Origin: Escherichia coli
Lineage (GTDB): Bacteria; Pseudomonadota; Gammaproteobacteria; Enterobacterales; Enterobacteriaceae
Direction: 5' to 3' (one strand)
Assembly (NCBI RefSeq): GCF_048403405.1
Contig: NZ_CP183129.1
DNA length: 64,000 nucleotides
In this document: one piece after another, positions 14,145 through 58,430 of the stretch
Numbering within the stretch: the first letter of the stretch is position 1
Layout: every line of letters starts with the position of its first letter
Position numbers and translations under genes: made by a program
Notes under the pieces: model-generated
What the model saw: the letters and a program-made list of their open reading frames with translations, nothing else
Database searches by the model: none
What the model was told of the DNA's origin: nothing

Positions 14145-14200
14145 AGTTTCCCCCGGTGAAAAGCGTGCGCCCGGTAAGCCAGATAAGACACAACAGCGTC

Positions 14201-14285
14201 GCATCAGGCATCTCGCACAATCGCCGGATGCGGCATAAACACCTTATCCGGCGGCGTACAAGTCGGCATCAGGCATTGATGCCCC
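14201..14285. repeat. REP-containing repeat cluster
   Basis: cgccggatgcggcataaacaccttatccggcg flanked by duplicated gcatcaggca motifs, between ytfR and ytfQ. Confidence 0.75.
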
Positions 14286-23665: not shown

Positions 23666-23712
23666 CGTTACGGGTACAAATGTAGATTGTTGATAAAGTG
23701 CTATTTGTCTAT

Positions 23713-23810
23713 GCCGGATGCGGCGTAAACGCCTTGCCAGGCCTACAAAATCGTCCAAAATCAATATATTGTGGGGACTGCGTAGGCCTGATCGGCATAG
23801 CGCATCAGCC
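23713..23810. repeat. pair of inverted REP elements (BIME-like)
   Basis: gccggatgcggcgtaaacgccttgccaggcctac (23713-23746) and gtaggcctgatcggcatagcgcatcagcc (23782-23810). Confidence 0.8.
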
Positions 23811-23987
23811 AGTTTTTCATTTATCAGCAGTCTGAATTTTAACCCTCTGGCGGCTTTACAGTACCTTACGCTATACTAGCCACTGAAAATGCCGGTTCAC
23901 TTTCTTCGAATCGGCTTTCAATGTGTATTTCACACAAATTAATCAACTTCCCCTTCCGAGGATCTGGCCTGAAAGGTCGGATAAGAT

Positions 23988-28431: not shown

Positions 28432-28620
28432 TTCTCCACCTCGTCTCTGTGAGCGGTGTTAACTTATTGTTTTACTTATACCCTATCGTTAATGAATGCG
28501 CCAACTGTGATAGTGTCATCATTTTCAAAGCGTAAAATTGTGGCATTCTTCACTGTTCTATAAGTAAGACGTTTATTCTCCCTTTTCTTTCGTATTCCCG
28601 ATGATAAAAGGATGTCCCTG

Positions 28621-30564
28621 ATGATTAAGTTTAGCGCAACGCTCCTGGCCACGCTGATTGCCGCCAGTGTGAATGCAGCGACGGTCGATCTGCGTATCAT
28701 GGAAACCACTGATCTGCATAGCAACATGATGGATTTCGATTATTACAAAGACACCGCCACGGAAAAATTCGGACTGGTACGTACGGCAAGCCTGATTAAC
28801 GATGCCCGCAATGAAGTGAAAAACAGCGTACTGGTCGATAACGGCGATTTGATTCAGGGGAGTCCGCTTGCAGATTACATGTCGGCGAAAGGTTTAAAAG
28901 CAGGTGATATTCACCCAGTGTATAAGGCATTAAATACGCTGGACTATACCGTCGGCACGCTTGGCAACCACGAGTTTAACTACGGTCTGGATTACCTGAA
29001 AAATGCGCTGGCGGGAGCGAAATTCCCTTATGTAAATGCCAACGTCATTGACGCCAGAACCAAACAGCCAATGTTTACACCGTATTTAATTAAAGACACC
29101 GAAGTGGTCGATAAAGACGGAAAAAAACAGACGCTGAAGATTGGCTATATTGGCGTCGTGCCGCCGCAAATCATGGGCTGGGATAAAGCTAATTTATCCG
29201 GGAAAGTGACGGTGAATGATATTACCGAAACCGTGCGCAAATACGTGCCTGAAATGCGCGAGAAAGGTGCCGATGTCGTTGTCGTTCTGGCGCATTCCGG
29301 GCTGTCTGCCGATCCGTATAAAGTGATGGCGGAAAACTCAGTTTATTACCTCAGTGAAATTCCGGGCGTTAACGCCATTATGTTTGGCCATGCTCACGCC
29401 GTTTTCCCAGGTAAAGATTTTGCTGATATCGAAGGGGCTGATATCGCGAAAGGCACGCTGAATGGTGTTCCGGCGGTAATGCCAGGCATGTGGGGCGATC
29501 ATCTTGGTGTGGTCGACTTACAACTCAGTAATGACAGCGGTAAATGGCAGGTGACGCAGGCGAAAGCGGAAGCACGGCCGATTTACGACATCGCGAATAA
29601 AAAATCCCTCGCGGCGGAAGACAGCAAGCTGGTAGAAACACTCAAAGCCGATCACGATGCCACACGCCAGTTCGTCAGCAAGCCAATCGGTAAATCCGCC
29701 GACAATATGTATAGCTATCTGGCGCTAGTGCAAGACGATCCGACCGTGCAGGTAGTGAACAACGCGCAAAAAGCGTATGTCGAGCATTACATTCAGGGCG
29801 ATCCGGATCTGGCAAAACTGCCGGTGCTTTCAGCTGCCGCACCGTTTAAAGTTGGTGGTCGCAAAAATGACCCGGCAAGCTATGTGGAGGTGGAAAAAGG
29901 CCAGTTGACCTTCCGTAATGCCGCCGATCTTTATCTCTACCCCAATACGCTGATTGTGGTGAAAGCCAGCGGTAAAGAGGTGAAAGAGTGGCTGGAGTGC
30001 TCCGCCGGACAGTTTAACCAGATTGATCCTAACAGCACGAAACCACAGTCACTCATCAACTGGGATGGTTTCCGCACCTATAACTTTGATGTTATTGATG
30101 GTGTGAATTATCAGATTGATGTTACCCAACCCGCCCGTTATGACGGCGAGTGCCAGATGATTAATGCCAATGCGGAAAGGATTAAGAACCTGACCTTTAA
30201 TGGCAAACCGATTGATCCGAACGCCATGTTCCTCGTTGCCACCAATAACTATCGCGCTTACGGCGGCAAATTTGCCGGTACGGGCGACAGCCATATCGCT
30301 TTTGCTTCACCGGATGAGAACCGCTCGGTGCTGGCAGCGTGGATTGCTGATGAGTCGAAACGTGCGGGGGAAATTCACCCGGCGGCAGATAACAACTGGC
30401 GTTTAGCACCAATAGCTGGCGATAAGAAACTGGATATCCGTTTCGAAACCTCTCCATCAGATAAAGCCGCGGCGTTTATTAAAGAGAAAGGGCAATATCC
30501 GATGAATAAAGTCGCGACCGATGATATCGGGTTTGCGATTTATCAGGTGGATTTGAGTAAGTAA
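28621..30564 (+). CDS. cpdB: 2',3'-cyclic-nucleotide 2'-phosphodiesterase / 3'-nucleotidase
   Basis: 647 aa from ATG 28621 ([10 protein letters not shown]...); signal peptide; metallophosphatase plus 5'-nucleotidase C domain. Confidence 0.95.
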
Positions 30565-30578
30565 TACACTTCTTTTTC

Positions 30579-30677
30579 GGCCTACAAATCATCAACCGCA
30601 TCCGACACTTTTGTCGGATGCGATGCTGGCGCATCTTATCCGTCCTACAAGTCATACACCGTAGGCCGCGCATCCTG
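30579..30677. repeat. cluster of REP-type palindromic units
   Basis: cggcctac..., gcatccgacacttttgtcggatgc hairpin, ...gtaggccgcgcatcc; fills the whole cpdB-ytfH convergent spacer. Confidence 0.8.
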
Positions 30678-30680
30678 CAG

Positions 30681-31061
30681 TTACGCCGCACGTTCATCCC
30701 GCACCGCCAACACCTCGGGCAAATTCAACTCAATCCAGTCCGCCAGTGCAGCAACCTTTTCGCTCACCTGCTCGCCCAGCGGCGTGAGGCTATATTCCAC
30801 ATGCGGCGGCACCACCGGATACGCGATACGGTTAAGAAAACCATCCTGCTCTAGCGCCTGTAACGACTGCGCAAGCATCTTTTCACTCACCCCGCCCATT
30901 TTGCGCCGCAGGTCGCTAAAGCGATGAGTACCTTCGCGTAGCGCCACCAGAATCAACACCCCCCAACGGCTGGTGACGTGTTTCAAAACCTCGCGCGACG
31001 GACACTGTTCAGCGAAGAGATTTCCCTCTTTCAGTTGTTGCGACAGGCTAACCTGACTCAT
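30681..31061 (-). CDS. ytfH: HxlR-family transcriptional regulator
   Basis: 126 aa from MSQVSLSQQ (ATG 31059-31061); the ORF-track call is extended. Confidence 0.9.
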   Translation of the reverse strand: MSQVSLSQQLKEGNLFAEQCPSREVLKHVTSRWGVLILVALREGTHRFSDLRRKMGGVSEKMLAQSLQALEQDGFLNRIAYPVVPPHVEYSLTPLGEQVSEKVAALADWIELNLPEVLAVRDERAA

Positions 31062-49156: not shown

Positions 49157-49181
49157 GTATCATCTACAGCAAATGAACAAT

Positions 49182-49215
49182 GCCGGATGCGGCGCGAGCG
49201 CCTTGTCCGGCCTAT
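49182..49215. repeat. REP element
   Basis: gccggatgcggcgcgagcgccttgtccggcctat between the convergent yjfN and aidB. Confidence 0.85.
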
Positions 49216-55898: not shown

Positions 55899-55922
55899 TA
55901 ATGTACTCGTTGTTTACGTTTT

Positions 55923-55951
55923 GCCGGGAGCGCCACGCTTGCCCGGCCTAC
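55923..55951. repeat. REP-like palindromic element
   Basis: gccgggagcgccacgcttgcccggcctac between rlmB and rnr; followed by the ccctcttc-tgtt-gaagaggg hairpin at 55963-55982. Confidence 0.7.
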
Positions 55952-55988
55952 GGATAATTCACCCTCTTCTGTTTGAAGAGGGTTATGA

Positions 55989-58430
55989 TCACTCTGCCAC
56001 TTTTTTCTTCGCCGCACGCTTCGCTTTGGTCGCTGCAGCTATTTTCTGCGTTTTCGCCGATGGCTTTTTCGCTTTTCTCGCGTCTTTCTTCGCCGCTTTC
56101 GGCTTCGTTTTTTTCTCGCCGCGGAAGGCGCTGTCTGGCTCAAAGTTTACCTTTTTACCGACCTGACGACGCTTGCCGCCTTTTTTACCTGCATCGCCTT
56201 TTTTCGCTTTCTCGCGCGCCGTTTTACCGACGTTGCGCGGTGCGCGTTCGCTGGAGATCAGGCTAAAGTCGATTTTGCGCTCGTCCATATTAACCGCTTC
56301 GACGCGAACTTCTACGCGATCGCCCAGGCGATAAGTCTGGCCACTGGATTCACCCATCAGGCGTTGCCCTACCTGGTCAAAGCGATAGTAGTCATTGTCC
56401 AGCGAAGAGACATGGACCAGACCATCAATGAACAAGTCGTCCAGACGGACAAAGAATCCAAAGCCAGCGACGCTGGAAATTACGCCTTTAAAGACGTTAC
56501 CTACCTGGTCGAGCATGAAGTCACACTTCAGCCAGTCAGCTACATCGCGTGTTGCTTCGTCGGCACGACGTTCCGCCATCGAACAGTGCTGACCCAGTTG
56601 CAGCATCTCTTCCATCGAATAATGGTAACCACCGGTTTCAGTGGTGTTGCCCTGATGCCCCTGCTCTTTCGCCAGCAGATACTTAATGGCGCGGTGCAGC
56701 GTCAGGTCAGGATAACGACGAATCGGCGAAGTAAAGTGCGCATAGGACTGCAATGCCAGGCCGAAGTGACCACGGTTTTCCGGATCGTAAATCGCCTGTT
56801 TCATCGAGCGCAGCAGCATGGTTTGCAGCATTTCTGCATCAGGACGATCGGCAACCGACTCCAGCAGCTCCGCGTAGTCACGCGGTTCCGGCTTGTTACC
56901 GCCCGGCAGTTCCAGCCCCAGCTCCGCCAGCACTGAACGGAAAGAGGTAATCGCTTCGGTGCTCGGCTTATCGTGAATACGGAACAGTGCCGGTTCTTTG
57001 GCTTTCTCAACGAAACGCGCCGCCGAGATATTCGCCAGAATCATGCACTCTTCAATTAATTTGTGTGCGTCGTTACGCTGGGTCTGTTCGATACGTTCAA
57101 TACGGCGTTCAGCGTTGAAAATGAACTTCGCTTCTTCGCTCTCAAATGAGATCCCACCGCGTTCTTCACGGGCTTTATCCAGCACTTTATAGAGGTTATG
57201 TAACTCTTCGAGATGCTTAACCAGCGGGGCGTACTGCTCGCGCAGATCCTGATCGCCCTGCAGAATATGCCAGACTTTGGTGTAGGTCAGACGTGCGTGA
57301 GAGCTCATTACCGCTTCATAGAATTTGTAGCCAGTCAGGCGGCCTTTCGACGAAACCGTCATCTCGCACACCATACACAGGCGGTCTACCTGCGGGTTGA
57401 GCGAACACAGACCGTTAGAGAGTACTTCCGGCAGCATCGGGATAACCTGCGAAGGGAAGTACACCGACGTACCACGGTTACGCGCTTCTCTGTCCAGCGG
57501 TGTTGGCGGACGCACATAGTAGCTGACGTCGGCAATCGCGACCCATAAACGCCAGCCGCCGCCGCGTTTTTTCTCGCAGTAAACTGCATCGTCAAAGTCA
57601 CGGGCGTCTTCGCCATCAATGGTGACCAGCGGTAAATCGCGCAGATCGACACGGCCCGCTTTTGCTTCTTCCGGCACTTCTTCTTTCAGCCCGGCAACCT
57701 GTTGCTCAACGGCCTGCGGCCAGATATACGGAATTTCATGGGTACGCAGAGCGATATCAACTGCCATGCCGGTGCCCATATTGTCGCCAAGTACTTCGAC
57801 GATTTTACCCACCGCTTTGGTACGGCGAGTCGGGCGTTGGGTCAGTTCAACCACCACCACAAAGCCCATCCGCGCGCCCATGATCTGATCGGGCGGGATT
57901 AAGATATCGAAGCTCAAACGACTGTCGTCAGGAACCACAAAGCCGACGCCCGCTTCGGTAAAGTAGCGACCAACAATCTGGCTGGTTTTTGGCACCAGTA
58001 CGCGGACAATACGCGCTTCACGACGACCTTTACGGTCAGCGCCCAGCGGCTGCGCCAGCACCTGATCGCCATGAATGCAGGTTTTCATCTGCTCGCTGGA
58101 GAGATACAAATCATCTTTACGCCCTTCAACCCGCAGAAAGCCGTAGCCATCACGGTGGCCAATAACGGTACCTTTCACCAGGTCGAGGCGTTCCGGCAGC
58201 GCATAGCACTGACGACGAGTGAAGACCAGTTGACCATCGCGCTCCATCGCGCGCAGGCGGCGACGCAGGCCTTCAAGCTGCTCTTCGCCTTCAATGTGCA
58301 GTTCTACCGCCAGCTCATCACGGCTGGCCGGTTTTTCACGTTTGGTTAAATGTTCGAGGATAAATTCCCGACTAGGGATGGGATTCGCGTATTTTTCAGC
58401 TTCGCGTTCCTGGAAAGGATCTTGTGACAT
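55989..58430 (-). CDS. rnr: ribonuclease R
   Basis: 813 aa from [10 protein letters not shown] (ATG 58428-58430); RNB and S1 domains, Lys-rich C-terminal tail. Confidence 0.95.

Follow-up and report, generated by a model that had tools for sequence, protein, structure and literature searches.

A partly decayed, BIME-2-like REP cluster between the convergent genes cpdB and ytfH of Escherichia coli

Since the 1980s, REP and BIME clusters have been known from the 3' ends of convergent Escherichia coli genes. The spacer between the convergent genes cpdB and ytfH raises the question of whether its palindromic sequences form such a cluster, and of what this cluster would do to the two transcripts that meet there. 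We analyzed the spacer within a 64,000-nucleotide stretch of E. coli DNA (the window). The sequence of E. coli 7/2 is 100% identical over a 451-bp stretch around the spacer, and RefSeq names the flanking genes cpdB and ytfH. The convergent stop codons are 116 bp apart (spacer 30565-30680). The preliminary description of this locus, which had given a spacer of roughly 115 bp with a cluster abutting both stops, thus proved right on this point, with 5 nt between the cluster and the cpdB stop and none between it and the ytfH stop. Two open reading frames cross the spacer, at 30479-30697 on the minus strand and 30618-30854 on the plus strand, and we assume that they are not genes because they are antisense to cpdB and ytfH. 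Neither a promoter-like site was found in the spacer, nor is an IS element present in it in the window. In the RefSeq annotation of K-12 (NC_000913.3) there is no repeat_region in the cpdB-ytfH gap, and the feature table over 50 kb (4,405,001-4,455,000) holds CDS rows and one pseudogene, and nothing else. This missing REP annotation is uninformative, because the equivalent region of the window carries several REP loci.

The spacer is almost certainly a partly decayed BIME-2-like REP cluster, in which a y tail fragment, a linker copy S', a z head fragment, a linker s, an intact y REP, a linker S and a z REP with an 11-bp deletion follow one another (Table 1). The spread and amplification of this family are attributed to the REP-associated tyrosine transposase. 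The spacer had been described beforehand as consisting entirely of stacked REP-type palindromes. Its derivation from REP and BIME sequences held, with the restriction that one REP only is complete and that the rest are fragments and linkers; about 9 nt (TACAC at 30565-69 and the CTTT loop) are neither REP fragment nor BIME linker. A 28-nt direct repeat (D1; 30571-98 versus 30634-61, 79% identical) has the tail and linker of the intact unit as its second copy, and it thereby identifies 30570-30596 as a duplicate of a y tail with its linker. Within this segment, 30570-30585 is the remnant of an upstream y-type unit without its 5' half. The next segment, 30597-30607, presumably represents the head of a z-type unit from which about 20 nt are gone; in the multi-unit arrays of other strains, the complete z unit ends in GCGCATCCGGC, the same sequence as this segment, with the s linker and a further y unit behind it. 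The hairpin that had been quoted beforehand as a REP unit turned out to be something else, namely the head-to-head junction at which this 11-nt REP-head remnant meets the intact REP with its own head. The junction hairpin is built on a perfect 11-bp inverted repeat (I1; CGCATCCGACA / TGTCGGATGCG, 30597-30607 / 30612-30622) with a 4-nt loop. An outer inverted repeat of 8 bp (CGGCCTAC / GTAGGCCG) joins 30578-85 and 30661-68.

Table 1. Features of the cpdB-ytfH spacer and its flanks (coordinates are those of the window).
Feature	Position	Strand	Basis
cpdB stop codon TAA	30562-30564	+	ORF 28612..30564; annotated cpdB under the 100% match
ytfH stop codon TAA	30681-30683	-	ORF ending at 30681; ytfH annotation
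y-type REP-tail fragment TTCTTTTTCGGCCTAC, CTAC foot	30570-30585	+	tail motif with 2 mismatches; direct repeat D1
Short tail-side linker AAATCATCAAC, S-like linker copy	30586-30596	.	part of D1; aligns to the second linker
REP-head fragment CGCATCCGACA, left arm of the junction hairpin	30597-30607	+	inverted repeat I1
CTTT loop	30608-30611		between the junction-hairpin arms
Perfect 11-bp junction hairpin with CTTT loop (hairpin quoted in the preliminary description)	30597-30622	.	inverted repeat and folding
Intact 37-nt y-type REP TGTCGGATGCGATGCTGGCGCATCTTATCCGTCCTAC	30612-30648	+	naRNA4 y-hairpin alignment; alignments to REPs; stem pairing
12-nt tail-to-tail S-like linker AAGTCATACACC	30649-30660	.	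between CTAC and GTAG feet; conserved across Escherichia alleles
Truncated inverted REP, GTAGGCC followed by GCGCATCCTGCAG	30661-30680	+	adjoins the ytfH stop; alignment A1 versus longer alleles
Candidate rut region, C-rich and G-poor, C/G 2.46	30681-30760	+ (cpdB-strand RNA past the cluster)	above the 99th percentile of 80-nt windows
Candidate rut region, C-rich and G-poor, C/G 2.30	30485-30564	- (ytfH-strand RNA past the cluster)	above the 99th percentile of 80-nt windows

The formal alignment to REP, on whose failure the identification would have been given up in the preliminary description, succeeded both with the naRNA4 model and with independent REPs. The Rfam model naRNA4 (RF02564), which derives from the REP325 BIME-2 array, aligned at full length to 30579-30645 on both strands, with 29.0 and 24.6 bits (E ~1e-3 to 1e-2); these scores of the spacer do not reach the gathering threshold of the model (59.5 bits). 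Its y-REP hairpin was matched near base for base by 30612-30645, with the stem kept. With the naRNA4 consensus of Rfam and other REPs of the window as references, the central unit gave local alignments with z = 9.6 versus the naRNA4 y consensus, z = 6.5 versus the y REP of the window at 14174 and z = 6.6 versus the z2 REP at 49180, none of 300 shuffles being as good. The flanking fragments, when taken singly, showed weak REP similarity (z = 1.3 to 3.7) and were rejected as independent REPs; their REP origin rests on the comparison with longer alleles. When up to 2 mismatches are allowed, the REP tail motif CTTATCMGGCCTAC has 7 hits in the window versus 0.6 expected, two of them within the spacer. 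Besides, the spacer sequence matches a median of 13 places per genome among 5,425 complete E. coli genomes (E <= 1e-3), as is expected of a repeat with dispersed copies. A strict full-length REP pattern (at most 3 mismatches) gave zero matches in the window, even at true REPs, its loop length being too rigid.

REPs of E. coli are imperfect palindromes with a GTAG/CTAC foot and a two-base stem mismatch that is needed for TnpA-REP binding (Ton-Hoang et al. 2012, PMC3333891). An imperfect palindrome of 30-40 nt is formed by the central unit (37 nt, 7+5-bp stem) and by none of the three other units alone. Feet are present as CTAC at 30645-48, in the intact y REP, and at 30582-85, and as GTAG at 30661-64. 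The stem mismatch of the intact y REP consists of GC at 30620-21 opposite TT at 30636-37, and these columns are invariant in an alignment of 11 sequences (A3; 9 orthologous Escherichia copies and 2 paralogous references). In the same alignment, the canonical REP stem pairs in 93.9% of the cells, versus at most 47% with slid partners, and three of its pairs change on both sides.

Further REPs were observed elsewhere in the window. A head-to-head pair at 14174-14258 consists of an inverted y unit (GTAAGCCAGATAAG...CATCAGGCA), a 12-nt linker and a z-like unit without a clean CTAC foot. Single REPs are located at 49180-49215 and 55921-55990, the latter being followed by a separate terminator-like hairpin (ACCCTCTTC-tgtt-tGAAGAGGGT).

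The spacer differs in length between strains. In K-12 (at 4,434,494-4,434,621), TUM13066 and OZ039653 it measures 128 bp and holds a complete 31-nt inverted REP beside the ytfH stop (CTGCCGGATGCGCTGCGCTTATCCGGACTAC on the ytfH strand), and the complete form of 128-129 bp was also found in the GTDB representatives E. albertii, E. whittamii and strain E69. In alignment A1, the window and O157 are without 11 bp (GGATAAGCGCA) of this stop-proximal REP, and W60, whose spacer measures 122 bp, is without 5 bp. The 11-bp deletion took one arm of the inverted REP at 30661-30680; its junction is contiguous in 1,016 of the 5,426 complete E. coli genomes (~19%), O157:H7 among them, and the exact haplotype of the window (at least 99% identity over the spacer) was found in about 250 records. 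In the genome search with the locus, 69 genomes had no match over 80% or more of the query, and the survey covers the others. Expanded spacers carry tandem units, three y-S-z units in E. coli SCPM-O-B-8794 (295 bp) and two in Escherichia sp. E1V33 (212 bp). Each unit in these two strains comprises a y REP, a 12-nt linker, a z REP and a 7-nt linker, and the units are perfect copies with an exact 84-nt period. Such arrays with at least two units are present in 4 of the 5,426 complete genomes.

These properties can be compared with those of known systems. A y/z pair, short linkers and a copy number that varies between strains are the hallmark of BIME-2 (Ton-Hoang et al. 2012, PMC3333891), and variation in tandem copies is indeed found among strains, the window holding one unit and the remnant of a second. 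Like the y-type REP in BIME-2, the intact unit is a 37-nt imperfect palindrome with the CTAC/GTAG foot and the GC/TT mismatch, is intergenic at gene 3' ends, and has an inverted partner across a short linker, the pair being amplified in tandem (84-nt period) in related strains; it differs in the T.T mismatch at stem pair 3-32. The y unit and the 12-nt linker of BIME-2 are present in the window, but the partner z unit is 11 bp short there and the upstream pair survives only as the tail and head fragments, while the partner in the long alleles is a 31-nt z-like unit with a loop about 7 nt shorter than that of the naRNA4 z2 consensus. With REP325/naRNA4 (RF02564), a transcribed HU-binding BIME-2 array, the spacer shares the z-linker-y layout, which aligns over all 77 model positions on both strands. 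However, the spacer scores 29 bits versus 59.5, its z half is replaced by the 11-nt remnant, and the likeness is one of sequence. Bertels and Rainey are said to have described, in 2011, the REPIN as a REP doublet that forms one long hairpin. The y-S-z pair of the long alleles can fold in this manner, with S as the loop, as in the fold of W60, whereas the deletion in the window prevents the long hairpin and leaves only the 8-bp outer pairing between CGGCCTAC and GTAGGCCG.

In other genera, different repeats occupy the same spacer. Citrobacter, several Enterobacter species and Salmonella arizonae have genus-specific REP variants, and in Enterobacter cloacae, Silvania and Kluyvera we found other palindromic repeats as well as terminators made of a hairpin and a T run. 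Enterobacter cloacae, Silvania confinis and Pseudocitrobacter vendiensis share a palindromic repeat of another kind (CCCTCTCCC-n-GGGAGAGGG, then GGGTGAGGG), and the first two species also have a bidirectional-looking terminator (AAAACGGCAAC...GTTGCCGTTTTT). It seems that the cpdB-ytfH spacer draws in the repeats of whatever family is resident in a genus.

The RNA of the spacer folds with z = -4.85 on the plus strand and z = -4.63 on the minus strand, with 0 of 200 shuffles as good. The junction hairpin (-18.4 kcal/mol) and the intact REP's own fold (-15.4 kcal/mol) are mutually exclusive, since 30612-30622 is common to both. The junction pair 30605/30614 (columns 61 and 70 of alignment A1) is a G.G mismatch in K-12, G.T in W60 and a perfect A-T pair in the window. 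The T at 30614 also gives the T.T mismatch in the REP's own stem, and E. whittamii restores a T-A pair there. The changes at 30605/30614 may be a quasi-palindrome templated correction, or may reflect selection for either of the competing structures. The stop-proximal fold beside ytfH amounts to -6.1 kcal/mol in the window versus -12.8 to -16.2 kcal/mol in the long alleles.

The second part of the question is what such a cluster does to the transcripts of cpdB and ytfH. On neither strand did we find an intrinsic terminator (a GC-rich hairpin with a U run directly behind it) within the spacer. In K-12, a Rho termination region that peaks at 4434325 of the minus strand has been reported in antisense orientation to ytfH (Rho score 3.24, p = 3e-6; Adams et al. 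2021, supplementary file 2). Without bicyclomycin, read coverage fell from 64 upstream of this position to 25 downstream of it, whereas with the drug it went from 161 to 204 (Adams et al. 2021). The peak corresponds approximately to position 30849 on the plus strand of the window and thus lies on the strand of cpdB, some 170 nt beyond the cluster. Its location inside antisense ytfH indicates that cpdB transcription normally invades ytfH in antisense, and the position of termination is coarse because the Rho score uses 800-nt windows. In supplementary files 1 and 3 of the same study, which cover three growth conditions, there is no curated Term-seq 3' end at K-12 4,434,300-4,434,799, a lack that could be due to low expression. 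These transcript data were all obtained with K-12; 12 bp and several substitutions separate its allele from that of the window. The proposal that the cluster defines both mRNA 3' ends is left unproven by the lack of a hairpin with a U run, by the Rho region at K-12 4434325 downstream of the cluster and by the lack of a Term-seq end in the spacer.

Considering all the evidence, the best overall explanation is probably that of a decayed BIME-2-like cluster acting as a barrier to 3' exonucleases, with no terminator. In the proposed mechanism, RNA polymerase coming from cpdB would read through the cluster, Rho would halt it further on in the C-rich antisense-ytfH region, and 3'-to-5' exonucleases would shorten the RNA until they meet a stable hairpin, either the 11-bp junction hairpin or the REP stem. 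Because the palindromic hairpins form on both strands, the same kind of cap is expected on the ytfH transcript. That the cluster works in this way, as a hairpin barrier after Rho termination downstream and not as a terminator, we consider slightly better than an even prospect. The Rho region, the C-rich flanks and the stable hairpins without a U run fit termination downstream by Rho with trimming back, and not termination inside the cluster. Rho-dependent transcripts have been reported with steady-state 3' ends at protective stem-loops, 24% of which are annotated REPs (Dar and Sorek 2018, PMC6061677). The cluster resembles these stem-loops and the mRNA-stabilizing REPs (Newbury et al. 1987) in having stable 3' UTR hairpins and no U tract. 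It also resembles them in the C-rich sequence downstream and, in K-12, in the Rho region downstream, but differs in that no trimmed 3' ends are among the curated K-12 ends at the locus. Such trimmed ends are predicted by the barrier explanation, and none is among the curated K-12 Term-seq ends at this locus.

Among the alternatives, the one that survives best is that of a neutral or selfish relic, in which the REPs were deposited and amplified by the REP-associated transposase and are now decaying with no host function at this locus; we regard it as possible, although rather unlikely. Three of the four units are fragments, the number of units ranges from 1 to 3 among Escherichia, and unrelated repeats or plain terminators fill the same spacer in other genera. 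Deletions of 11 bp (1,016/5,426 genomes), 5 bp (W60) and putatively 20 bp (first copy) are tolerated, as are stem mismatches. This erosion, which varies by lineage (11-bp and 5-bp deletions, stem mismatches), argues against strong selection on the exact form of the cluster. On the other hand, the intact y REP is kept in 11 of the 11 Escherichia alleles examined, its stem is kept through two-sided changes (G-C in K-12 versus T-A in E. whittamii), and every allele has at least one strong hairpin. Besides, a relic is compatible with incidental RNA protection, so that it is not exclusive of the barrier explanation.

A role at the DNA level, either as a site of gyrase binding and cleavage or as a topological insulator that absorbs positive supercoils between the convergent units, is improbable. 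By Topo-seq, a subset of BIME-2 elements, most of them multi-copy, is enriched in gyrase cleavage sites, with y-type REPs preferred. Since the spacer has an intact y REP between convergent genes, this preference speaks for such a role, and gyrase binding at the y-type REP of the spacer is plausible by analogy. However, the cleaved BIME-2 subset is mostly multi-copy and the spacer has a single intact y unit with a truncated z partner; moreover, the names cpdB and ytfH are absent from two supplementary files of the Topo-seq paper.

The reading put forward in the preliminary description, a bidirectional transcription terminator that releases RNA polymerase and sets both mRNA 3' ends, we consider very improbable. 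It has in its favor the stable palindromic hairpins between convergent genes and, on the minus strand, a weakly U-containing stretch (GUUGAUGAUUUGU) after the junction hairpin. The hairpins with T-run terminators in the same spacer of other genera, e.g., AAAACGGCAACGCACGTTGCCGTTTTT in Enterobacter cloacae, suggest in turn that termination is needed at this position. These points are outweighed by the K-12 data, in which the cpdB strand shows bicyclomycin-sensitive read-through beyond the spacer; besides, neither a hairpin with a U run on either strand nor a listed Term-seq 3' end was found in the spacer.

BIME-1 elements consist of z1 and y units across a long L linker that bears an IHF site (Ton-Hoang et al. 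2012, PMC3333891). A textbook BIME-1 was observed in the window at 23711-23812, with a z1-type REP at 23711-46, a 35-nt L linker holding the exact IHF core AATCAATATATTG at 23759-71 and an inverted y REP at 23782-23812. The cpdB-ytfH spacer shares the inverted REPs of BIME-1 (RIP/RIB) and has general association of some BIMEs with IHF as the only point in favor of an IHF-binding element of this kind, a reading with next to no probability given its linkers of 11-12 nt instead of a long L linker and the absence of the IHF core WATCAANNNNTTR from 30565-30680, when the same scan finds this core at 23759-23771 in the BIME-1 of the window as a positive control. The IHF binding suggested beforehand is thus not borne out at this locus.

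Returning to the barrier explanation, the alleles also differ in what terminating ribosomes would meet. In K-12-type alleles, the REP hairpin starts 2-3 nt after the ytfH stop, and it is removed by the deletion in the allele of the window. In 2015, Liang, Rudd and Deutscher reportedly observed that a REP within 15 nt of a stop codon stalls terminating ribosomes. Stalling of ribosomes by REPs at stop codons is also summarized in the introduction of the RepRanger paper, and the supplements of that paper do not mention the cpdB-ytfH locus. With the hairpin near the ytfH stop deleted, any stop-proximal REP stalling of ribosomes on YtfH should therefore be lost in the window strain. More speculatively, and with a low probability in our view, the 11-bp deletion (~19% of the complete E. 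coli genomes) may relieve REP-induced ribosome stalling and raise YtfH. A further G-to-A change in the lineage of the window (~5% of the genomes), maybe quasi-palindrome templated, would then make the perfect 11-bp palindrome and shift the dominant RNA/DNA structure from the REP stem to the new hairpin, giving a natural allelic series with regulatory consequences.

Overall, the cpdB-ytfH cluster is an ordinary eroding BIME-2-like element of an already known kind. It matches expectation in its variable copy number, its erosion and the absence of an IHF site, and it matters little beyond correct annotation. The gain is a precise parts list for the cpdB-ytfH locus, together with two cautions: the most eye-catching hairpin is a junction artefact and not a REP, and a "REP cluster" should be taken neither for a "terminator" nor for an "IHF site". 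With its intact, 5-bp-deleted and 11-bp-deleted alleles, the stop-proximal REP could be used as a natural experiment, if a small one, on how REPs affect translation termination.
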